From the IMG/VR virus record IMGVR_UViG_2571042445_000002: a stretch of 64,000 bases of DNA; one strand, 5' to 3'. The notes below the pieces were generated by a model. That model was not told the DNA's origin. It did no database searches and saw only the letters and a list, made by a program, of their open reading frames with translations. Positions 18,351-59,520 of the stretch are shown in pieces. Every line of letters starts with the position of its first letter. The first letter of the stretch is position 1. The position numbers were made by a program, and so were the translations under genes. The stretch is from a virus. Taxonomy: Duplodnaviria > Heunggongvirae > Uroviricota > Caudoviricetes.

Positions 18351-18539
18351 GAATGTATGATTTATATCGTCACTAAAAAACAGCATCTGATAAAAATTCT
18401 GTTGATCTTTCTAATGTTCAGGCTTATATTCATGCCGTCGTAGCAAATTCTGCGACCGGGTTTAGCAGCCTGAATGTTAGTGCGGACAACCGCAGATATC
18501 CGATATTGCGGTATTTTTGTGTCCGTAAAACCGCGTTAC

Positions 18540-18677
18540 GCCCAAATTATGGTGGGGCGTGATGGGGAGGCTTCGGCCTGCTGGTTTCACTAACGCCAGT
18601 CTGCTAACCCCGTCACGTCCTGCCACCTGTTTAGCAGCGGGTAGCAGGTTGTTAAACCTGTTAGTGAGGCCGTAACT
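18540..18677 (+). ncRNA. candidate c4-like antisense RNA / structured leader
   Basis: hairpins (e.g. gaggc-UUCG-gcctg) in the leader just upstream of icd-like gene. Confidence 0.25.
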
Positions 18678-29926: not shown

Positions 29927-29942
29927 TATGTTAGAAAACTAA
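29927..29942. promoter_or_regulatory. operator-like motif TATGTTAGAAAACTAA
   Basis: motif family member about 20 bp upstream of the 402-aa gene. Confidence 0.5.
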
Positions 29943-29962: not shown

Positions 29963-31171
29963 ATGAGTCAGCAAGTAGAATCATCAAGCCTGGAGATCAT
30001 CTCAACCGCAATTGAAACGCTGCGGACACAAATCGCGCTTATACAGAAACGAAATCCGGGCGATGACCTGTCAAAGCGACTGCATGAGAGCGTCATTGCC
30101 ACTACAGATAACCTGGTGGCGGAAATCAACCAGCTCCTTGATGATGGGGCAGTTGATTACAATAAGCTGGTGGATCAGTTTGAGGAATATCAGCAAGCCG
30201 TTAATGATGGCTTGATCCGTTTTTCTCAAGTCACTGGTGTATCAGCGACAGTTGAAAGCCTGGGGGATGCAGTTAATCAATTTGCCGCGAATATGCGTAA
30301 TGAGATCGGCAATCTGGAGGCGCGTCTTGAGCAGGCAAATACACTGCGCAAATCTGCTGAAGTCGATTTGAGTCGTTACAAAAAAGACTATCCGCCAAGC
30401 CTGACAAAACGACTGGATGTTGCGGAGAAAGATAACCGCACGCTGAAAAGAGAGCGTCGGGAACTAAAAGAGCGTTTAACCAAGCTAAATCAGCAATGCG
30501 TTGAGTATCAAGGCGAACTCGTCACACTGCGTAAAAAGTTAGCAGCGGCGCAGAGCATTATTGAAACATTGAAACGAGAGTGCTCAGAGCTTGGTCATGA
30601 TCTGAATCGCGCCTGTGGCATGGGGCAAAGGCCAGAGACATTCCCGCTAATGTATGACGGAAGAGAAGCTATTGCCTATATCCATGAGTTTCCGCATGGT
30701 CTGGTCGCGGAGACTGGGCAACGTGGCGAAGCGTTGCTGACGGCAAATTACCATCAGCAAATCAGAACCAGCCGCCTGCTGACGATGGATGTGATCCCGT
30801 CAGTATGGGGAACGCCGCTTTACTACCGAATTCCTGGCTTCGAAACTGACTGGAATACCGACATAGACGAATGTCTGGCAGATAAAATTATGGCGTACCT
30901 TGAAACGGATTTTCCACGCTTGCATCGCCGGATTATGGACTCTAAGGATGCACCGATCGACGAATTGAAAATGCGTCCAGAGACGTTGGAGGCAATCAAG
31001 CAGACTGAGTTTGATACAGTGTTCAGTGTGGCCTGCATTCCAAGCAGCTTTCATGAAAGCATTCCGTTCATGCAGGGCGATCGCCGTCAGGAAATAATTG
31101 ATGCTTGCCGGGTATGGGCGAACGAGTGGGATAAGAAGAACGGTGGAGTTGAAAATCTTTACGGGAAATAA
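29963..31171 (+). CDS. coiled-coil hypothetical protein
   Basis: 402 aa; N-terminal half strongly coiled-coil; good RBS AAGGGAAC. Confidence 0.45.
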   Translation: MSQQVESSSLEIISTAIETLRTQIALIQKRNPGDDLSKRLHESVIATTDNLVAEINQLLDDGAVDYNKLVDQFEEYQQAVNDGLIRFSQVTGVSATVESLGDAVNQFAANMRNEIGNLEARLEQANTLRKSAEVDLSRYKKDYPPSLTKRLDVAEKDNRTLKRERRELKERLTKLNQQCVEYQGELVTLRKKLAAAQSIIETLKRECSELGHDLNRACGMGQRPETFPLMYDGREAIAYIHEFPHGLVAETGQRGEALLTANYHQQIRTSRLLTMDVIPSVWGTPLYYRIPGFETDWNTDIDECLADKIMAYLETDFPRLHRRIMDSKDAPIDELKMRPETLEAIKQTEFDTVFSVACIPSSFHESIPFMQGDRRQEIIDACRVWANEWDKKNGGVENLYGK

Positions 31172-31172
31172 T

Positions 31173-31206
31173 GTATTAGAAAATTAAAATTGTTTTTCTA
31201 ACATAT
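31173..31206. promoter_or_regulatory. operator-like inverted pair
   Basis: TGTATTAGAAAATTAA and inverted TTTTTCTAACATA at the entry to the ncRNA/tRNA island. Confidence 0.5.
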
Positions 31207-31322
31207 TGATTATGTAGTTAACTTAACATAGAATTTTTCGTGCTGGTGGGGAGCTTCCCATGTCGCTTGCGGGTTTGATAGTCACTTCATTGTCTTTCCC
31301 CACCAGCATCAAACAATTTTAA

Positions 31323-31336
31323 GTGTTAGAAAGTAA
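31323..31336. promoter_or_regulatory. operator-like motif GTGTTAGAAAGTAA
   Basis: motif family member. Confidence 0.4.
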
Positions 31337-32515
31337 ATTTTAAGGTAAGGGAAAGCTCCGGCACCGTGCAAATACATGCCCGGCAGGTTTAGTGCGTAAA
31401 GTGGTTTCAGCGAGAGCATTTTACGGAGTAAACGACAGTGACTTGAGCCACGGAAGGTCTTTTTATGGTGTTCATTGATGATGATCTGGCAGTGAGTATG
31501 TTAAGTGGGCCAGGCTGCATCGGGTCATCATCAGTGCACATCCTCAACGTTAAGGAGGCGCAGAGTTGGGTTTTCCTCTTATTTTGCTGACTCTGAGTCT
31601 CCTTAACGTTGCGGTAATGCACCTATGCGGATGTGGCCTTGCATTGTGTCTTGAAAGAATGGGGTAAGGCCGGGGATATCCTCAGGGGGAGGCACCCCCG
31701 CTGCAACGAACAGCCACAGACGGCAGTCGAGTGATGGAAACGTGCAAAGACTTTAAACCTCGTTACGGCTGGCGTGGCAAACGCGACAACCGAGACAGAG
31801 CGGTGACGGGCGGAGAGAGAGCCGCTTCAAGATAAAAGCCGACTATGGATTCCTTTCTGCGGGCCTTTGAAAGTGAATCTTGCTCAGGCAGTCGGCTTTT
31901 ATGTTGATACGTAGCGATAACCGCGACAGGCGCGGCGGTAAGTATGGCGGGGTTATTCCTTCCCCGTTGAGGACACCGAGTTGCCAGGTTGACCATACGC
32001 CTAAGTGGCAATACCGCGAGTGGGATATTTGCCCACCTTCGGGTGGGTGTTTTTTCAGTGTTTTCGTCATGGTTAGCGACTTTGCGGCGGTTTAGAACCC
32101 GACCATTAAAGTAAATGCAAACGATGATCTGATGATGGTAGCGGCCTAAGAAGCCTGACGCCACGGGGTATGAGTCGTCCCCCGTCAAAAAATCGACCGC
32201 AGAGTGTCCCCGTCTGTGTATTAGGGAACGGGGAGGCATAACAGGCAAGGGCGCTGGTGTGATTAACCAGATGAATGAGAAGGGTCAGGTCTTTCTGGTC
32301 AGCGCCCTTACCTGTTACGTCCCTCCCGCGTAACAGCCATTGGTTAATGGCTTTCTGGGATAATGTCTTGTAACGGGTATATCCCGTCATGCTGAAGGCG
32401 CTAATCACGCTGGAAGCCAGGGTTATGCATCCCCTGTTACCGAATTGCAGCCAGGGCGCGGTGCGCCGAAAAGCATACGGAGGTGGAAGCCCTCGCCGGA
32501 GACGTACCCGGCAAG

Positions 32516-32591
32516 TGATGGTGTAGCTCAGTGGTAGAGCAGTTGGCTGTTAACCAACTGGTCGGTGGTTCGAATCCACTCACCATCGCCA
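32516..32591 (+). tRNA. tRNA-Asn (anticodon GTT)
   Basis: 76 nt; acceptor gatggtg/caccatc, anticodon loop CTGTTAA, T-loop TTCGAAT, 3' CCA encoded. Confidence 0.85.
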
Positions 32592-32593
32592 AT

Positions 32594-32669
32594 GCCGGTT
32601 TAGCTCAGTTGGTAGAGCGCCTGCCTTGTAAGCAGGATGTCAGCGGTTCGAGTCCGTTAACCGGCACCA
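32594..32669 (+). tRNA. tRNA-Thr (anticodon TGT)
   Basis: 76 nt, 2 nt after tRNA-Asn; anticodon loop CTTGTAA; T-loop TTCGAGT; CCA encoded. Confidence 0.85.
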
Positions 32670-32671
32670 AC

Positions 32672-32760
32672 ACAACAGGTAAGGGTATTTTGCGACGTCG
32701 GAGATCGCCGAGCTTGGCAGAGGGTTCGAATCCCTACGAAGTACCCTTACCGTTGTGATG
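32672..32760 (+). ncRNA. tRNA-like hairpin element or pseudo-tRNA
   Basis: 15-bp stem acaacaggtaagggta/tacccttaccgttgt enclosing a T-arm-like GGTTCGAATCC; no full cloverleaf. Confidence 0.3.
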
Positions 32761-32857
32761 AATGCACAGGCTGATGTGCCGCAACTACAGTAGTGCGCGC
32801 TTTGCGGGGCTTGCTACAACCCTGTGTCGGAGTTCAGCACCGACCATCACAATCACT

Positions 32858-32944
32858 GGAGAGTAGGGAGCATGGTGCTCAAGCGGTCTTGAAAACCGTC
32901 CCATTGCGCAAGCGATGATGGTTCGATTCCATTACTCTCCGCCA
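32858..32944 (+). tRNA. tRNA-Ser-like (anticodon TGA), long variable arm, atypical D-arm
   Basis: acceptor ggagagt/actctcc, anticodon loop CTTGAAA, long variable arm, T-loop TTCGATT, CCA encoded. Confidence 0.5.
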
Positions 32945-33200
32945 GCGCAACGTTAAGAGTATTTGGCTAATTAAGCGAATGCCGGAAGCAGAACCGGATC
33001 ACCAAATGCTCTTACCATTGCGGTGAATGCGGCTAAGCGCACGCGGAACAGTTAAAACAGTAAAGGTGGTCTTTTTACTGGCGTAACGAGAATCCATAAG
33101 TGATCCGGCGTTAATTGTTAACTGGTTAACGTCACCGGGAGGCACCCGGCACCGCAACCTAACAGCAATGGCGTTTTGTCTTAAAAGGTGGCTGCAAGTG

Positions 33201-33329
33201 ATGGATTTTTGGGCGTTTGCCGATAAAAACCCGGAGTGGACATTATTGTTTCTGCTGGTGGTTGCATACGGGGTAGAGCAAGCGGCAAAAGCCTTACGCG
33301 GTTCTGGCAAAAAGCGTAAGCGTAATTAA
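33201..33329 (+). CDS. small membrane peptide (42 aa)
   Basis: ATG ORF MDFWAFADKNPEWTLLFLLVVAYGVEQAAKALRGSGKKRKRN, one TM helix plus basic tail; below the ORF-track size cutoff. Confidence 0.25.
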   Translation: MDFWAFADKNPEWTLLFLLVVAYGVEQAAKALRGSGKKRKRN

Positions 33330-33338
33330 CAGTAATCT

Positions 33339-33414
33339 GGCCCTTTAGCTCAGTGGTTAGAGCGGGCGACTCATAATCGCACGGTCACCGGTTCAAGTCC
33401 GGTAGGGGCCACCA
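33339..33414 (+). tRNA. tRNA-Ile2 (anticodon CAT, lysidine type)
   Basis: 76 nt, nearly identical over D-arm and anticodon arm to E. coli tRNA-Ile2 as I recall it; CCA encoded. Confidence 0.8.
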
Positions 33415-33866
33415 CATTTGGTTGTAACACGGCGTATGGCACATGCGTCGTTAGCGGTCTGGTGTAGCTGTTAGGTACCTTTTACTAACACTGCATGGGC
33501 ACACCAGGTAGCCGGAATGTGCAAGCCCCGTTCATAGCGTCGGACTGCGGATTCACCATCCTGGCGATTCGGTGTGACAGCCGGAAGAGCACGGCGTACA
33601 ACAGGAAAAGGCGTTTAATTAGCGTGAGCGCCGTTTCCGTTGTGGTAATTGCGGCTATGCGCTCGTGACGAAGCCATTTTCATTCACTACGTTCTGATAA
33701 GTGTCGTCGCCGGGCGTGGCTAACCTGGCAGGTGGAGGCACCACCGCCACAACTCCTTTCAATTCATCATATAGCCGCTCAGGCTGTAACCCTTAATTAA
33801 TACGAAGTTACGACGTCACTACCGGTTCAGCCGGGGGATAGTCGCGCGTGTAAAAAAGGAGACGTT

Positions 33867-34442
33867 ATGTTAACGGCGAACGATAACGCGTATTCAGAAG
33901 ATGATCTCGTTTTGAGTGACTTTATAGGGCGACGAGAATGCTGGACGCAAAAGCGCGAGGAGCTTTATGCAGCGTTAGTTCGTAAAGGCGTCAACATCGA
34001 AACCGCACAGAACGGTGATATGACAGTGGTAAGTGTTGGACTGCACGGCGTAAGTGTGTCAGCAATCAATCATGAGCCGTACATTGCGTTATCCGAGTCG
34101 ATGGTAAGGTTAGTTAAGTTCCTGAAGTACACAGAAGCGAATAACGTGATCATCGCCAAAAAGAACATCCCGTTCTCATCGGCCTTTTACTGGATGATGA
34201 AGGGGCTTGATGCCCGGCGAACATCATGGCCTAAAGGGAGCTATATATCGATGCTCCGTGGCAGTGTTGGTAGCAAAGAAAAGCTCGTCGAATTCCTGCC
34301 GGAAGAGGCATTCGATATTGTTGAAGGTTGTGATGTGATGGTTATGCCTCGCCTGGTAATGATGAATGGGGATTTACAGGCGCAGACAGACTGGTTTGCA
34401 ACTGGAGTTGATATTATCGCTACTGACTGGGAGGTTTTTTGA
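33867..34442 (+). CDS. DUF2829 (Tad2-like) domain protein with N-terminal extension
   Basis: 191 aa; C-terminal region has the W-x3-G-x3-RR-x2-W-x-G signature (FYWMMKGLDARRTSWPKG) and the DIIATDWEVF end. Confidence 0.4.
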   Translation: MLTANDNAYSEDDLVLSDFIGRRECWTQKREELYAALVRKGVNIETAQNGDMTVVSVGLHGVSVSAINHEPYIALSESMVRLVKFLKYTEANNVIIAKKNIPFSSAFYWMMKGLDARRTSWPKGSYISMLRGSVGSKEKLVEFLPEEAFDIVEGCDVMVMPRLVMMNGDLQAQTDWFATGVDIIATDWEVF

Positions 34443-34822
34443 TGTACGAGGCTACTAAATTACGCACTGAGGATGCGATGCACATTGGTTGGGACATCAT
34501 CACCTGCAAGATAACATCATGCAAGGCTACACGCACAGACGCCGGACACAAGAGCACAATATCAGGTTATGTCGTGATGTCAGTCAGGAGTGTGCGCATA
34601 CGCTTCAGATGGAAAGCCTGCCAGGTTACATCATCAATGCCGCTTACCGTCGAGCAGGATTATTTATGCTTACCCGAAATAGACGGAGCGTTGCTGGTGG
34701 GCAATAGTGGTCGAAAAGCCGATTTTGAAGCCAGTCTGAAGATGGCGCAGGCGGTGATCAACAAACATAAAGGGAAGTGGGAGGCAAAAGTTAAGCATGT
34801 TGTTCGTTTATCCCGCTGGTAG
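34439..34822 (+). CDS. hypothetical protein
   Basis: 127-aa ORF coupled to the upstream gene; an alternative-frame ORF overlaps it. Confidence 0.3.
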   Translation: MMYEATKLRTEDAMHIGWDIITCKITSCKATRTDAGHKSTISGYVVMSVRSVRIRFRWKACQVTSSMPLTVEQDYLCLPEIDGALLVGNSGRKADFEASLKMAQAVINKHKGKWEAKVKHVVRLSRW

Positions 34823-34855
34823 TGTTAGCAAATTGATATTAATTTTCTAATACAT
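34823..34855. promoter_or_regulatory. operator-like inverted pair upstream of the Lpa-like gene
   Basis: GTGTTAGCAAATTG and inverted TAATTTTCTAATACA. Confidence 0.5.
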
Positions 34856-34929
34856 CATGTTTTTGACAGTCTTCTCAGTATTAACAAGCTGATTATCATC
34901 CCCTCGGTCTTTTTCTATCCGGGGGATAA

Positions 34930-35322
34930 ATGGAGCAAATCAGTAGCGCCGAAATAGCGGATATCATGATCAGGGCTAACTGCTATCTGACGGTCACCGA
35001 AATCACCAGCCGTGCAAAAGCACAATATCCTCACCTTCATGTGTCGCGCGTAAACGTAAATAACATCATACGTTTTTTTGTTCGTTCCAGTCGTGCCATT
35101 TGCGAAATAGACGACCGCGTATACCCCCGGAAATATTGGTTACATGGCCTGAATGGATACCAGTTCAAGGTGCGCGGGCGCACTCCTGAATTCGGTCGGC
35201 TGTTGGTGAAAAACACCAACCGAAAGATAGAAGCTCAATTACGAAAGGAGCAGCGTCAGTTGGTGGCGATGACTAACCAGCTATGGAACGCCGCTGTGAA
35301 AAAACGTGAGGCTTCCCTATGA
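34930..35322 (+). CDS. Lpa-like late promoter activator (putative)
   Basis: 130 aa basic protein upstream of pacA-pacB (P1 order lpa-pacA-pacB-c1) and preceded by an operator pair. Confidence 0.4.
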   Translation: MEQISSAEIADIMIRANCYLTVTEITSRAKAQYPHLHVSRVNVNNIIRFFVRSSRAICEIDDRVYPRKYWLHGLNGYQFKVRGRTPEFGRLLVKNTNRKIEAQLRKEQRQLVAMTNQLWNAAVKKREASL

Positions 35323-36683
35323 CGTTAATTAACTGGGAAGCGCATCGAGCTAAGTTCCTGGAGTTAAGAGAAGAAACCGGGATCACCATAAAAGAATATT
35401 GCGAGCAGCATGACCTCAGCTTTAACACCGCCAGAAAGCATCTCAATATGAAAAAAAATGAGGTTAAGGCGAAAGCTAAGGCTACCGGGAAAAGTACAAA
35501 ACAGCGCGCAAAAAGCAGTGCCACCGGCTCAAAAAAAGAGCAAAAAAAGGCTAATAAAAGCACAGAATTTACAAAAACTGACAAATCGTTGGCTGGTGGA
35601 CGGTTCCGCGCCATGCCGCAAAAACAAAATGCGGATCACAAAGAAAAGCCAAGTAATAACAACAAGATACACAAGGATGTGAAGGGATCATTTTGTGATG
35701 AAATGGGAGAAATGATCCCTAAAAGCAGCGATAAAGCCCAACGAAACAAGGGATCATTGCAAATGATCCCTGATTCATCAGCTCAAAGCACCACTTTGCC
35801 TGCCACCAACGTCGCCCGTGAGATGATGAAGAACGGCGCGACTGAACATTTACGACTTGCGATACAGATGGCGCAGGAACGAGCAATTCAGTATCAGGCT
35901 ATCGTTGACCAGGAAGCGGAGCGACTACAGGAAGAGATTGACGCTCTCGGTGATACACAGCCAGAGGGGATGCACCCAGGGCAGCGTCTTCTCGGACTGA
36001 TCAGCGATGCGGCCTACTACATGAATGACTTTATCACCAGGCTGGCAGCCATCTATCAGAACGAGCAGAAGCTACGCCAGGGGGATGAAAAACTTGCGCA
36101 GGGCGCGCGTCAGCAGGCATTCAGGGAGGCTGAGGCCAGAGAAAAACTGGCGATTGCCCGCCTACAAGCCGAGCAGCGTGGCAAGGAGATTGAGTATCGC
36201 ATTGGCGCTGACGCACGCGCCGCCAGGGTTATCGCCGCCGCTATACGTATGCGTGAGCGCGAGGAGCTGGATGATATAGGTGTTGCTGAATATATCGAGC
36301 GGCAGGGCGTCAGTGTCCCGGCTATCCTGGCGGCACGAGCGGCAAAAGCGATCTCACTTCTGGAGCCTCCGGTTTCTGACGTTAACGATGTTGATGATGA
36401 GCAACTGGATAAAGAGGCGAAGCAGTTTGCCGAGCAACAAGCTGGACTCCCACAATGGCTTGCACAACGCCGGGCTGAAGTAGCGAAAATCGTTGATAGG
36501 CTTGGGATGGGGGATTACGACCGGAACGGAGAACGTAAAGCCGGTGAATTTGAGGCCAATGATGAAGACCTGAATATAGACCCTTCCGCCACGGCTGATA
36601 TCTACGGTGATTATGACGCGGGGGATACCGGTTTTGATGCTGTAGATGACGAGATTGCGATAGACCAGCCGGAGGATGACTAA
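35319..36683 (+). CDS. pacA: PacA-like terminase small subunit
   Basis: 454 aa; basic Lys-rich N-terminal region, acidic C-terminus; contains the GATC-rich candidate pac site; precedes the terminase ATPase. Confidence 0.5.
   Translation: MTLINWEAHRAKFLELREETGITIKEYCEQHDLSFNTARKHLNMKKNEVKAKAKATGKSTKQRAKSSATGSKKEQKKANKSTEFTKTDKSLAGGRFRAMPQKQNADHKEKPSNNNKIHKDVKGSFCDEMGEMIPKSSDKAQRNKGSLQMIPDSSAQSTTLPATNVAREMMKNGATEHLRLAIQMAQERAIQYQAIVDQEAERLQEEIDALGDTQPEGMHPGQRLLGLISDAAYYMNDFITRLAAIYQNEQKLRQGDEKLAQGARQQAFREAEAREKLAIARLQAEQRGKEIEYRIGADARAARVIAAAIRMREREELDDIGVAEYIERQGVSVPAILAARAAKAISLLEPPVSDVNDVDDEQLDKEAKQFAEQQAGLPQWLAQRRAEVAKIVDRLGMGDYDRNGERKAGEFEANDEDLNIDPSATADIYGDYDAGDTGFDAVDDEIAIDQPEDD
35680..35772. 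promoter_or_regulatory. candidate pac packaging site (four AGGGATCATT elements)
   Basis: GATC at 35686, 35714, 35752, 35765 as two inverted pairs within pacA; P1 pac is a cluster of Dam-site hexamers inside pacA. Confidence 0.4.
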
Positions 36684-38191
36684 TGGCTGGTGGTCGTAAG
36701 ATTAAGTGCGTCACCAGTGATCCACGTTGGCGCGATATGGTTATCAGGTATCGATACAACTTTACCCAGGCGGTTGTCGATATTTTTGGGATGTTCCCCT
36801 CCCACCAGCAGCAGCAGATCATTCAGTCAGTGCAGGAGACGGGGAGCAGGACGACCGTTACGTCCGGACACGGAACGGGTAAGTCGTCCCTTACCGCGAT
36901 GTTGCTACTAATTTTCATGATCCTGTTCCCCGACGCCCGCGTCATTATTGTTGCGAACAAAATAGGCCAGGTAAAAACAGGCGTATTCAAATACGTGAAA
37001 CAGTTTTGGGCGAATGCTGTTAAGCGTCACGGCTGGTTACAGACCTATTTTGTCCTGTCTGACACCATGTTTTATGAGCGTTCCCGTAAAGGGATATGGG
37101 AAGTGCTCTGTAAAGGTTATCGACTCGGTAACGAAGAGGCACTGGCGGGGGAGCACGCTGAGCATTTACTGCTAATCCTTGATGAAGCATCGGGCATATC
37201 CGATAAGGCGATTAACGTCATGACGGGGGCGTTAACGCAGAAAGATAACCGTATGCTCATGCTTTCCCAGCCTACGCGTCCAAGCGGTTACTTTTATGAA
37301 TCTCACCATTCAAGGGCAAAGGCAGAAGGCAATCCGGAAGGTGTCTGGACGGCAATAGTCCTTAACTCTGAAGAATCACCATTCGTTGAACCGAGCTTTA
37401 TTCGTGAGAAATTGCTGGAGTACGGCGGCAGGGATTCGCTGGAGTACATGGTTAAGGTGCTGGGCCAGTTCCCGCGTGCAATTAACGGGTATTTGCTTGG
37501 TCGTGATGAGTGCGACCGCGCCGCACGGCGTAAAGTGTTGCTGGAGAAAGATTGGGGCTGGGTAGCGACCGCTGACGTCGGTAATGGTCGCGACAAATCG
37601 GTGCTCAATATATGCAAAGTATCCGGTTATCGTGAGAAACGACGCGTTGTGAACTTTAAGATACTGGAGATGCCAGGCACTATGGACCCGTTGGCTTTTG
37701 CCGACTTTATCTATAACGAATGCACTCCTGATAAATACCCGAACATCACCATTGCTGTGGATGCTGATGGCTTTGGTTCAGATACGTGTGCGCAGCTTGT
37801 CCGCCGTGGTGCTAATCCCGTTCGCATCCGTTGGGGTAAGCCTATGTTTGCGCTGAGAGACAGAGAACGCTTTGTCAATCAGCGTGCTTACGCCAATATT
37901 ATGGCAGGGGATGCCATTAAATCCGGGCGTATGCGTATCGATAGTGACCCCAAAACCGCAGATCAGGCATCAAAAATCCCGTATATGCTTAACGAAGAAG
38001 GGAAGGTAGCGATGATGCGCAAGGAGCACATGCGGCAGAAGTTAAACATCAAGTCACCGGACAGATGGGATACCTACTGCTTCACTATGCTGGTGGATTA
38101 CGTGCCTGCTAATGAAGACATTGGCGCAGAACTCGCAACATTCCGCGATCAGGTGTTGGCAGAAGTGGATATTCCTGATATTGACATTTAA
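36683..38191 (+). CDS. pacB: PacB-like terminase large subunit
   Basis: 502 aa; Walker A-like SGHGTGKSSL; ATGA overlap with pacA. Confidence 0.55.
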   Translation: MAGGRKIKCVTSDPRWRDMVIRYRYNFTQAVVDIFGMFPSHQQQQIIQSVQETGSRTTVTSGHGTGKSSLTAMLLLIFMILFPDARVIIVANKIGQVKTGVFKYVKQFWANAVKRHGWLQTYFVLSDTMFYERSRKGIWEVLCKGYRLGNEEALAGEHAEHLLLILDEASGISDKAINVMTGALTQKDNRMLMLSQPTRPSGYFYESHHSRAKAEGNPEGVWTAIVLNSEESPFVEPSFIREKLLEYGGRDSLEYMVKVLGQFPRAINGYLLGRDECDRAARRKVLLEKDWGWVATADVGNGRDKSVLNICKVSGYREKRRVVNFKILEMPGTMDPLAFADFIYNECTPDKYPNITIAVDADGFGSDTCAQLVRRGANPVRIRWGKPMFALRDRERFVNQRAYANIMAGDAIKSGRMRIDSDPKTADQASKIPYMLNEEGKVAMMRKEHMRQKLNIKSPDRWDTYCFTMLVDYVPANEDIGAELATFRDQVLAEVDIPDIDI

Positions 38192-58055: not shown

Positions 58056-58089
58056 TGTGTTAGAAAATCAATTTTGATTTTCTAACACA
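58056..58089. promoter_or_regulatory. perfect palindromic operator
   Basis: TGTGTTAGAAAATCAATTTTGATTTTCTAACACA between divergent genes. Confidence 0.6.
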
Positions 58090-58720: not shown

Positions 58721-59369
58721 TTAAGTTGAATTGTGAGATTCGCCGTTGTACATTCACAACCGATTGGTACACCGGTCAACTTTTTGAGACAAACCGTTTG
58801 GTTTTTCGTATGATTGCCGCCGCCATACCAATGGCGGTGCAATATAGGTGGCTGAAAAGCCCCCGTTGACTCACGGTGTTCCAACCTTTATTGCGCCGCC
58901 ACCAGACCGTGGAACAGTCGATGGCGGCTCCGAAAGCAAGGAGTCACTACACTATGAACAGCTACTGTCTTTTCCCATCACTCGTTGTCCGCCACTCACG
59001 CGATAATCTGCATTCTTTACTCGCGCTGGGGGTGTCAAAATGACCGTTCGCTACCTCAACTTTCAAATCCAGAACATCACTGGCGGTTGCTATGACTGGT
59101 TTGTCACTCTCGGAAAAGAAGTGATCACCGGAAAGCTGGATGAAGTGAAAGCTAAAGCAATGGCCTACGCCTGCAAGCAAGCCCAAAAGAAGAAAAGAAA
59201 AGCATAAGAAAACACACAGTTGCGCCCTGGCATTATCGTGGGGTATATTTCTACGGCACCTTAGAAAAACGGGTGCCGGGATTGGAACCCCGGATAATGT
59301 CAAAGGCGACACAGACGCCGAACGCGTCTTTTTTTGTGTCATGCCATCGCACAGCCATACTTAGCGTTT

Positions 59370-59520
59370 AGCTCAGAGATCAATGGTAGTGCTGGCTGGG
59401 CTGCCGAAAGGCAGGCCGGTTCCCTTTGACGCCGGTAGTTCCAACCCAGTCAGTGCTACCGCCATTGAGATTGGAACCTCACGCGGTAGCTCCTTAACTT
59501 AGTCAAAGGAGGCTGCCAAT
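59370..59520 (+). ncRNA. candidate c4-like antisense RNA / structured leader (copy 2)
   Basis: hairpins (ctgcc-GAAA-ggcag) upstream of the second icd-like gene. Confidence 0.25.

Follow-up and report, generated by a model that had tools for sequence, protein, structure and literature searches.

A gene-free stretch upstream of the tRNA genes

We analysed a 1.3-kb region (positions 31207–32515) of a 64,000-nt stretch of caudoviricete DNA, IMG/VR record IMGVR_UViG_2571042445_000002, the whole of which is called the window below. The region is placed between a pmgS-like morphogenesis gene and a + strand array of four tRNA genes (Table 1). A preliminary description, made from the letters and a list of open reading frames (ORFs), had singled it out as protein-free and hairpin-rich and had suggested that it may encode processed small RNAs (sRNAs) or a tRNA precursor leader. 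Here we describe its constituents, which include long hairpins, a cloverleaf-like element that recurs among the tRNA genes, a scaffold shared with the DicF locus and a cassette that resembles part of transfer-messenger RNA (tmRNA), by which bacteria rescue ribosomes.

For the 2.75 kb around the region, the best match is Escherichia phage D6 (87% covered, 90.7% identity), and shorter parts of this neighbourhood match P1, P7, RCS47, SJ46 and other P1-family phages. The region itself has matches in 605 plasmid records, among them an E. coli plasmid at 99.8% identity. The window also holds two C4 antisense RNAs, with c4-a1b1 and isrK; C4 and c4-a1b1 belong to P1-type immunity regions. From the D6 and P1-family matches, the plasmid matches and the C4 RNAs together, we read the window as a D6-like, P1-family phage-plasmid.

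Seven ORFs of the region were checked against Pfam and PHROGs. Pfam returned no significant match for them, and the sole PHROG match was phrog_27020, to a minus-strand ORF at 32109–32408 (E = 6e-48). This match, together with a hypothetical protein annotated here in one plasmid record, could indicate a real protein gene hidden in the region, such as this 100-amino-acid minus-strand ORF or a 34-codon ORF at 31734–31838. However, the phrog_27020 frame is broken by indels in P1 and in three other relatives (L005, L006 and L007), and this family, whose function is not known, is probably one of over-called ORFs from near-identical DNA of the RNA region. The longest ORF, of 161 amino acids on the minus strand, has a 119-bp gap inside it in D6; the 34-codon ORF was rejected, its ATG, frame and stop all being lost in relatives; and the curated P1 record has no gene annotated at the corresponding place. 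We therefore regard a hidden protein gene as highly improbable. The region contains no conserved ORF, in line with the earlier judgement that none of its ORFs is credible.

Table 1. Features of the region and its surroundings, in window coordinates
Feature	Position	Strand	Basis or remark
pmgS-like morphogenesis gene	29963–31171	+	upstream neighbour of the region
Operator-like pair in opposite orientation, putative C1-repressor operators: TATTAGAAAATTAA and TGTTAGAAAAACAA	31174–31187 and 31190–31203	+ and -	motif recurrence
Sigma-70-like promoter, TTGATT-17-TAGAAT	31206–31234	+	consensus scan; predicted start near 31241
Stem-loop at predicted transcript 5′ end, 13-bp outer stem	31241–31310	+	z = -3.8
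Third operator-like site, TGTTAGAAAGTAAA	31324–31337	+	exact match to search pattern; counterpart in D6
Long hairpin, ~19 bp, 31462–31484 with 31525–31547	31462–31547	+	inverted repeat I3; not in the preliminary description
Near-perfect long hairpin, 24 bp	31545–31612	+	z = -8.0
Cloverleaf copy A	31600–31714	+	model R1, 82.5 bits, E = 2e-21
Cassette with conserved core GCTGGCGTGGCAnACGCGACAACCG (31768–31792)	31709–31821	+	presence/absence pattern
Long hairpin, 17-bp outer stem and inner stem, then U-rich tract	31827–31907	+	covariation
DicF-locus scaffold: helix CGGU/ACCG around a hairpin, hairpin with invariant 19-nt loop GGUUGACCAUACGCCUAAG, short variable segment	31921–32025	+	
Intrinsic terminator, 8-bp GC-rich hairpin and U6, AUAUUU before	32030–32056	+	terminator scan
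Near-invariant 5′ block, UUUUCG..GCGACUUUGCGG..UAGAAnCnGACCA..AAAGUAAAU	32060–32116	+	conservation in relatives
Start-less frame GCA AAC GAT GAT CTG ATG ATG GTA GCG GCC TAA (ANDDLMMVAA-stop)	32117–32149	+	tag-like
Pseudoknot A: stem 32163–32168/32180–32185; GUCG 32174–32177 pairs with CGAC 32194–32197	32163–32197	+	
Pseudoknot B: CAGA 32200–32203/UCUG 32213–32216; CCCCG 32208–32212/CGGGG 32229–32233	32200–32233	+	coordinates by hand
Long hairpin, ~27 bp	32230–32326	+	z = -5.7 (computed on 32231–32327)
Conserved 3′ segment with small hairpins, end GCCGG-AGACGUAC-CCGGC four bases before tRNA-Asn	32333–32516	+	conservation
Downstream array: tRNA-Asn 32517, tRNA-Thr 32594, copy D, tRNA-Ser 32858, copy B, tciC-like mini-ORF, tRNA(CAT) 33339	32517–33414	+	ARAGORN, Rfam, R1
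Cloverleaf copy D, degenerate, abuts tRNA-Ser	32744–32860	+	model R1
Cloverleaf copy B	33009–33165	+	model R1; Rfam STnc100, 40.8 bits
Cloverleaf copy C	33631–33760	+	model R1

Relationship to the P1 ban-operon leader and the DicF locus

Positions 31918–32766 align at 89% with P1 directly downstream of Pban/Oban, where the P1 counterpart (NC_005856, 68729–69501) contains a ‘dicF-like region’ (68791–68892), trnA and trnT. We take this part of the window to be the counterpart of the P1 ban-operon leader (NC_005856 features 68651–69501). Both run in the same order, from scaffold through terminator, conserved block and long hairpin to tRNA-Asn and tRNA-Thr, and the entry here carries operator-like sites and a candidate sigma-70-type promoter where P1 has Op72/Oban and Pban. 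They differ in that here the promoter lies ~700 bp further upstream, with five extra cassettes (31241–31907), and in the variable segment before the terminator. The P1 operon ends in ban, a DnaB-like helicase gene; downstream of the region here come tRNAs, the tciC-like ORF, two ORFs and then lpa and pacA homologues, with no helicase gene within 33400–36700.

The scaffold at the head of this alignment is widespread. Positions 31921–32017 have a counterpart of 90–94% identity in 4130 of 5426 complete E. coli genomes. In the Qin prophage of K-12 this counterpart (~92% identical) lies between ydfC and dicB, directly 5′ of DicF, and is followed by an STnc100-like element. Across 62 variants the scaffold shows 5 compensatory pairs. 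The AUAUUU, GC-rich hairpin and U6 that follow it make up a 3′ module typical of Hfq-dependent sRNAs. When IMG/VR was scanned with the loop sequence, the scaffold was seen to be followed by at least 10 unrelated terminator-ending segments, DicF being one such 3′ part, the P1 version another and the window version, UACCGCGAGUGGGAUAUUU plus the terminator, a third. Given the scaffold homology and the terminator of its own, 31921–32056 reads as an sRNA gene of the DicF type whose 3′ part differs, ending at 32056. On this reading the DicF ‘gene’ would be a single 3′ part among at least 10 that the shared scaffold can carry, which offers a direct route to new phage sRNAs.

DicF itself is produced from the dicBF transcript through termination and through processing by RNase E and RNase III (PMC9438474). 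With the DicF locus of Qin and other lambdoid prophages the window shares the ~97-nt scaffold, a variable segment, an intrinsic terminator and an STnc100-like element after these. The DicF sequence is absent from the window, however, and by our reading of the alignment the window also lacks GUUGUGGC/GCUGCAAC, the outer helix by which the Qin scaffold is closed. As a positive control, the Rfam DicF model scored 76.7 bits on Qin DicF (L003 3122–3173). We found no site complementary to the invariant scaffold loop in the window, and in a duplex test against the leader of ftsZ, which with manX, xylR and pykA is among the DicF targets, even genuine DicF was not separated from shuffles.

A cloverleaf-like element repeated among the tRNA genes

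The preliminary description had noted that the motif GGAGGCACC...GC..CAAC recurs. We located it at all three places given there (31689–31707, 33139–33160 and 33736–33756) and in a degenerate fourth copy abutting tRNA-Ser. The motif forms the 3′ end of a cloverleaf-like element with an outer helix GUUGYGG/CYRCAAC, a conserved hairpin GCGGCUAWGCGC, a variable arm and a terminal 5-bp hairpin with loop AGGCA that abuts the 3′ strand; it recurs because STnc100/PasD-like copies of this cloverleaf recur. Copy A, for example, has GUUGCGG (31608–31614) paired with CUGCAAC (31701–31707) as its outer helix, and its terminal hairpin GGGGG-AGGCA-CCCCC (31685–31699) is the GGAGGCACC motif.

A self-BLAST for paralogous modules proved too insensitive, and the copies in Table 1 were called with R1, a covariance model built from eight cloverleaf copies. 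Over 61 distinct sequences, in an alignment fitted to its model, 95.3% of cells are paired, compared with 80.2% in shuffles and at most 53.5% with slid partners, and 14 of the 22 pairs show compensatory changes. The copies in Qin and P1, which Rfam matches weakly to STnc100, have the same fold, with an outer helix around hairpins and a terminal hairpin beside the 3′ strand. The Rfam STnc100 model gave no match to copy A at E ≤ 10 and none to copies C and D at E ≤ 1.

The prophage sRNAs STnc100 and PasD are related to each other, and PasD is Hfq-bound and validated by northern blot in enteropathogenic E. coli (EPEC; bioRxiv 10.64898/2026.05.13.724894). The window elements share with STnc100 (RF02076) and PasD the 5′ sequence GUUGYGGUGAAUGCGGCUAWGCGC, the terminal GGNGG-AGGCA-CCNCC, a 3′ strand pairing back to the 5′ end, and placement in phage late or tRNA regions beside TerB/tciA-type genes. 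In contrast to those families, four copies are here interspersed with tRNAs in one array, each with a long hairpin before it and no terminator of its own. Each copy is followed by a tRNA, an ORF or another cassette. We infer that the copies may be processing signals for RNase P or RNase III; the GGAGGCACC motif marks a cloverleaf-like element that punctuates phage tRNA arrays.

Long hairpins conserved as + strand RNA

A scan of the 64-kb window for inverted repeats with arms of at least 13 nt, at most 90 nt apart, found 14, of which 5, including the four longest, fall in the 1.3-kb region that makes up 2% of the window. Folding z-scores were computed for + strand RNA against dinucleotide shuffles. 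The four hairpins that had been listed from the sequence are all present and fold better than shuffles. One of them, at 31838–31903 (z = -2.2), is only the tip of a longer stem (31827–31844 with 31890–31907), and the hairpin at 31462–31547 had been missed.

Most of the hairpins, like the repeated cloverleaf motif, are kept in relatives with compensatory changes, so the structural conservation on which the preliminary reading depended is present. At the predicted 5′ end, the stem at 31241–31310 is retained in 13 variants and has one compensatory pair (GC to CG or the reverse). The hairpin at 31462–31547 appears in the consensus fold of 11 variants, in which the changes are mostly exchanges between G-C and G-U or between A-U and G-U. 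At 31545–31612 two pairs are compensatory relative to the D6 type; the 3′ arm of this hairpin overlaps the outer helix of cloverleaf copy A and analogous hairpins stand before other cloverleaf copies, and we propose it as an RNase III-type processing site. The hairpin at 31827–31907, proposed here as a processing site or weak terminator, shows compensatory changes at 7 of its 28 pairs (11 variants), and its G·U pairs favour the + strand. In P1-type relatives the pairing of 32230–32326 is held largely by + strand G·U pairs, which would be C·A mismatches on the other strand; in lambdoid relatives an equivalent hairpin precedes the STnc100-like cloverleaf.

Inverted repeats could instead act as DNA, in the form of cruciforms, protein-binding palindromes, an origin, or packaging or recombination sites. 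Both strands do fold better than shuffles, as those of any inverted repeat must, the operator-like sites at the entry are DNA elements, and the cassette boundaries behave as recombination joints. However, many of the conserved pairs are G·U on the + strand and would become A·C mismatches in the complementary strand or in a cruciform, the pseudoknots and multi-branch cloverleaves with covariation are RNA features, and the modules have known RNAs as homologues, in the DicF locus and in STnc100/PasD. We consider a DNA-level explanation very unlikely: helices rich in G·U that are workable only on the + strand argue for + strand RNA rather than DNA cruciforms.

Operator-like sites and a candidate promoter at the entry

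The preliminary description had placed operator motifs at the entry of the region, and as an observation this is borne out: sites lie at 31174 (+), 31190 (-) and 31324 (+), around a promoter-like site of which both hexamers are kept in D6. They belong to a TGTTAGAAAATTAA-like 14-mer with ~15 occurrences in the window; at up to 3 mismatches there are 37 matches where 22 are expected, a count reached by 0 of 100 shuffles. Read from their coordinates, other sites lie directly 5′ of genes or RNA genes, at 29929 (pmgS-like), 18319 (c4-a1b1/C4) and 34839 (lpa-like).

According to the P1 record, the homologous operon of P1 starts at the C1-controlled operator Op72/Oban, which overlaps Pban. Because of the position of this bivalent operator in P1, we regard the 14-mer as a candidate operator of a D6-type C1 repressor, and its opposite-orientation pairs resemble the bivalent C1 operators of P1. 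The two systems differ in operator sequence, ATTGCTCTAATAAATTT in P1 and TGTTAGAAAATTAA here, and in layout, since the P1 operator overlaps the promoter whereas here the operator-like sites flank the hexamers. Closely spaced pairs in opposite orientation occur at three places in the window (31174–31203, 34823–34852 and 58056–58089), the last being a perfect 16-nt palindrome arm pair.

A cassette resembling the tag-coding part of tmRNA

Immediately after the terminator lies a block, 32060–32233, that the preliminary inventory did not include. Its first part (32060–32155) is nearly unchanged even in relatives that are 74–85% identical elsewhere. It contains a frame that has no start codon and encodes ANDDLMMVAA, a peptide that is as long as enterobacterial SsrA tags (ANDENYALAA) and starts and ends as they do; in P1 the frame lies at about 68,944–68,976 of NC_005856, as calculated from the locus offset. 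Upstream of the frame, in-frame stops occur at a distance of 6–8 codons with no ATG, GTG or TTG in between. In homologues from Erwinia and Rouxiella, which came from a scan of species-representative genomes, a 1-nt indel shifts the upstream frame, and again a stop and no start are met. The context AAAG-U-A-AAU directly before GCA puts U at -5 and A at -4, with an A-run before the frame. These positions match U85 and A86 of E. coli tmRNA, which set the frame there, A86 being nearly universal (PMC2481249).

In all 17 distinct nucleotide versions the frame has 10 codons followed by TAA, and these versions encode 16 peptides: ANDDLMMVAA, ANDNLMMVAA, ANDDLMMAAA, ANDDLMMVAP, ANDDVVLMAA, ANDNVVLMAA, ANDDAVLMAA, ANDDLMLQAA, ANDDLMLMAA, ANEEMYLAVA, ANEEMYLAAA, ANDNAFLMSA, ANDDQFLAVA, ANDEQFLAVA, ANEERFLMAA and ANDSELLMAA. 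It always begins GCA AAC GA(T/C/A), second codon positions are the least variable, and its changes are synonymous (GAT>GAC twice, CTG>TTG, CTG>CTT and GCC>GCT) or conservative. The other two frames contain stops in 17/17 and 14/17 versions. Homologues were found in Klebsiella plasmids (in a 1.6-kb gene-free stretch with tRNAs), which we take to be SSU5-like phage-plasmids, in Rouxiella, in an Erwinia prophage and in IMG/VR contigs. A further 30 metagenome contigs, which gave the most divergent tags, were found with a pattern for the upstream block alone, so that conservation of the tag in these is not there by construction.

A small hairpin takes in the final Ala codons and the stop codon, the latter in its loop, an arrangement that resembles tmRNA helix 5; two pseudoknots follow. 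Both helices of pseudoknot A covary (GUCG/CGAC, CCGA/UCGG, CCAA/UUGG and CCAG/CUGG), as do those of pseudoknot B (CAC/GUG, CAG/CUG and CAU/AUG; GCCC/GGGC and AUCC/GGAU). For the five helices taken together, over 16 diverse sequences, 93.7% of cells are paired, compared with 84.6% in shuffles (0 of 500 reach the observed value) and at most 46% with slid partners. Compensatory changes affect 10 of 22 pairs, including both of the loop-to-downstream helices.

Among Rfam models, the closest resemblance is to permuted and beta-proteobacterial tmRNAs, in their tag region. The tmRNA_permuted model scores a sub-threshold 24.1 bits in the window, the region's only match other than hairpins, and 39.6 bits in the Klebsiella homologue (E = 3e-6 on 1 kb and 6e-5 on 21 kb); all Rfam tmRNA scores in the window and homologues are below the gathering threshold of 47. 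Neither the window nor any of more than 30 homologous loci gave a tmRNA call with ARAGORN, a duplex search with the 5′ end of the cassette found no conserved partner on the 3′ side, and no G3·U70-type acceptor stem could be read from the sequences of neighbouring cloverleaves or tRNAs. Comparison with E. coli ssrA gave no extended similarity (best local score 23, shuffle mean 19.7), and no equivalent of PK1 was demonstrated 5′ of the frame. One candidate, a T-arm and CCA in Klebsiella plasmid L248, was rejected as part of a 160-nt insertion absent from the sister plasmid.

Compared with the coding piece of two-piece or permuted tmRNA (RF04321/RF01850), the cassette thus shares the start-less, 10-codon AN(D/E)x....(A/V)A-stop frame, U-5/A-4 and the A-run, the stop codon in a hairpin loop and the downstream pseudoknots. 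It differs in having no tRNA-like domain, CCA-ending acceptor stem or G3·U70, in being conserved over only ~175 nt and in lying inside phage RNA/tRNA arrays rather than as a stand-alone gene. With no tRNA-like domain, 3′ partner or extended ssrA similarity, it falls outside the tmRNA family as defined, and looks like the mRNA-like domain only, the tag-coding half of a tmRNA without the tRNA half.

The carriers of the cassette are P1/D6-like and SSU5-like phage-plasmids, lambdoid prophages and gut siphoviruses, and it stands almost always beside tRNA genes or cloverleaves, with tRNAs within about 1 kb at many loci. In the Erwinia prophage the order is Q antiterminator (PHROG match), late promoter and terminator (identified by eye), cassette, STnc100-like cloverleaf and holin-like gene. 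In a 48-kb gut phage contig with a tail-gene context, the cassette and a cloverleaf form a unit with tRNA-Ser, -Arg and -Met that opposes the direction of the tail genes.

We considered three roles for the cassette: a ribosome-rescue template or decoy, a leader element dependent on a mini-ORF, and a relic kept for some other RNA-level role. As a working trans-translation template, the block would belong to a phage tmRNA-like RNA, either split or without a tRNA-like domain, whose tag is added to nascent chains on stalled ribosomes, so that the phage would set or divert protein tagging. The start-less, length-constant and tag-like frame with its synonymous or conservative changes, the U-5/A-4 and A-run as in E. 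coli tmRNA, the two covarying H-type pseudoknots and the 39.6-bit Klebsiella match all speak for such a template. Weighing against it are the negative results above (tRNA-like domain, 3′ partner, G3·U70, Rfam scores below 47 and ssrA similarity) and the origin of the one Klebsiella T-arm and CCA in an insertion that the sister plasmid does not have. Moreover, a predicted helix UUUGCG/UGCAAA could instead account for the invariance with which the frame begins, and a +1-frame mini-ORF is likewise constant at 5 codons. We therefore put the template forward as a tentative sub-hypothesis that is less likely true than not, and that is compatible with the account of the whole region given below.

The mini-ORF, ATG CAA ACG ATG ATC TGA (MQTMI-stop; 32114–32131), overlaps the start of the tag frame and has 5 codons in all relatives (MQTMI, MQTMM, MQTTM, MQTII and MQTMT). 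Through it, or through MMVAA-stop, the block could be a cis-acting leader element that serves the tRNA or late transcript downstream of it as a translation-coupled attenuator or as a stability element, in which case the likeness to a tmRNA tag would be ancestral or coincidental. The mini-ORF does have an ATG and a fixed length, and the block comes right after a terminator in P1-type elements and after the Q-dependent late terminator region in the Erwinia prophage, both typical sites of leader control. Yet no Shine-Dalgarno sequence precedes the ATG, and the mini-ORF leaves unexplained why the next 15–18 nt keep a constant frame, length, Ala-Ala and TAA despite sequence change. A leader element of this kind seems improbable, more so than a template.

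As to function, we consider a real link of the cassette to trans-translation possible but clearly less likely than not. The broader proposal is similarly speculative: enterobacterial phages may carry a mobile, ~175-nt tmRNA mRNA-like domain that serves as a template, in trans with a separate acceptor RNA or by some other entry route, or as a decoy for SmpB or the ribosome, and by which host rescue and tagging are re-programmed or blocked. If true, it would add a new player in ribosome rescue and in phage control of host proteolysis.

Five P1-type relatives (L019, L053, L095, L100 and L109) have an insertion right after GGTTTAG, at the equivalent of window position 32095, that parts the 5′ block from the tag frame; we read it as IS200/IS605-type from a TnpB-like translation. 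In plasmid L250 an annotated TnpB gene (286–1455) lies just upstream of the remaining homology.

A mosaic of exchangeable cassettes

The modular make-up of the region, which had also escaped the preliminary description, became apparent from its distribution. The first 700 bp (31172–31915) occur only in D6-like elements, namely 120 plasmids and, as the sole phage record covering most of it, D6. Individual cassettes are absent or swapped independently in relatives. The cassette at 31709–31821 is missing from two D6-like relatives and is found on its own in a Pantoea plasmid, a Klebsiella Uetakevirus and two IMG/VR contigs (L009 2501–2613; L010 2001–2072; L133; L136). A ~70-nt motif within it, CTCGTTAnGGCTGGCGTGGCAnACGCGACAACCGnGAnAG, is common to the Pantoea, Klebsiella and two viral-contig copies, and it has one covarying hairpin (ACCG/CGGU to CACG/CGUG) and no Rfam match. 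A scan of the region with all Rfam families at permissive thresholds yielded only weak microRNA-type hairpin matches and tmRNA_permuted, with no match to DicF, GOLLD, ROOL or other large RNAs. The region appears to be a mosaic of exchangeable structured-RNA cassettes that are shared with lambdoid prophages.

A probable repressor-controlled RNA operon

Taken together, these observations make it probable that the region forms the 5′, non-coding portion of a polycistronic RNA operon under repressor control, an extended counterpart of the P1 ban-operon leader. When a C1-type repressor leaves the operator-like sites, the sigma-70 promoter at 31206–31234 would fire. The transcript would open with a protective 5′ stem-loop and continue as a chain of self-folding RNA cassettes that phages exchange as units: long hairpins, the STnc100/PasD-type cloverleaf, the 31709–31821 cassette and the DicF scaffold with its own terminator. 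Part of the transcript would end at 32056 as a DicF-type, Hfq-class sRNA, and read-through would extend the remainder into the tmRNA-like cassette, the leader hairpins and the tRNA/cloverleaf array. RNase III acting at the long hairpins, RNase E in AU-rich linkers and RNase P at the tRNAs and perhaps the cloverleaves would then release sRNAs and tRNAs. The lack of conserved ORFs, the homologies, the modular mosaic, the conserved and covarying structures and the strand are shown here, whereas we infer that the region is transcribed, that a repressor controls it, which enzymes process it and what each cassette does. To this extent the suggestion of processed sRNAs or a tRNA precursor leader is supported by homology and covariation, through the P1 ban leader, the DicF scaffold and STnc100/PasD.

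Several points weigh against this account. First, several helices are invariant and therefore uninformative either way, and many of the aligned sequences are close relatives, so that the shuffle statistics overstate their independence. Second, the links to known sRNAs are below formal thresholds: the cloverleaf copies score under the gathering score of 47 for Rfam STnc100 (copy B, 40.8 bits), and Rfam DicF (RF00039) has no match in the window at E ≤ 10. Third, the promoter scan gave 2 sites where 3.0 are expected in shuffles, so the promoter call rests on position and on conservation in D6. Fourth, the intrinsic terminator at 32030–32056 sits in the middle of the region, and co-transcription of the upstream 0.8 kb with the tRNAs would therefore need read-through. 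We assume read-through past 32056 by analogy with P1, in whose record Obanab is annotated as the control of ban ~2.6 kb downstream. Finally, the passages that a term search picked out of one P1 RNA-seq study contain no discussion of this non-coding leader.

Some components are already known, as the P1 part is annotated ‘dicF-like’ and STnc100 and PasD are described families. A paper on a D6-like plasmid mentions only ‘the tRNAs region’. In a literature search that did not extend to most subscription papers, we found no paper on dicF-like or tmRNA-like elements of P1 or of prophages, none on a tmRNA-like cassette of SSU5-like or lambdoid phages, and no description of the D6-type extension, of a scaffold with exchangeable 3′ parts or of a cloverleaf repeated in tRNA arrays. 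The operon would explain a stretch left blank in hundreds of annotations of P1/D6-type plasmids.

The presumed leader segment and the tRNA array

The last segment of the region, 32333–32516, is 84–98% identical in six aligned relatives, including P1 and D6, has local hairpins in its consensus fold and is presumed to be the pre-tRNA 5′ leader. Positions 32057–32516 run directly into tRNA-Asn on the + strand, and no terminator-like site intervenes; the part upstream of 32056 lies on the other side of the intrinsic terminator.

In two relatives (L007 3518–3594 and L008 3377–3453) tRNA-Arg(TCT) replaces the tRNA-Asn(GTT) found at window positions 32517–32591, with the flanking leader and tRNA-Thr the same; single tRNA genes are swapped as cassettes. 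Between tRNA-Thr and copy D, positions 32678–32751 form a long hairpin, GGTAAGGGTA...TACCCTTACC, enclosing a T-arm-like GAGGGTTCGAATCCCTA, and look like a tRNA remnant. The tRNA(CAT) at 33339–33414 is tRNA-Met according to ARAGORN, and its P1 homologue is annotated as tRNA-Ile2 (ileX-like); an ileX-like tRNA would count as Ile once modified with lysidine. In the D6 RefSeq record NC_050154 (L001 3756–3906 and 4375–4461), tRNA-Asn, -Thr and -Ser are annotated opposite to the Rfam strand, which looks like an annotation error.

Elsewhere in the window, the two C4 antisense RNA genes are separate, one at 18424–18630 with c4-a1b1 targets and the other at 59256–59466 with isrK in front, which suggests two immunity-type RNA regions in one element.

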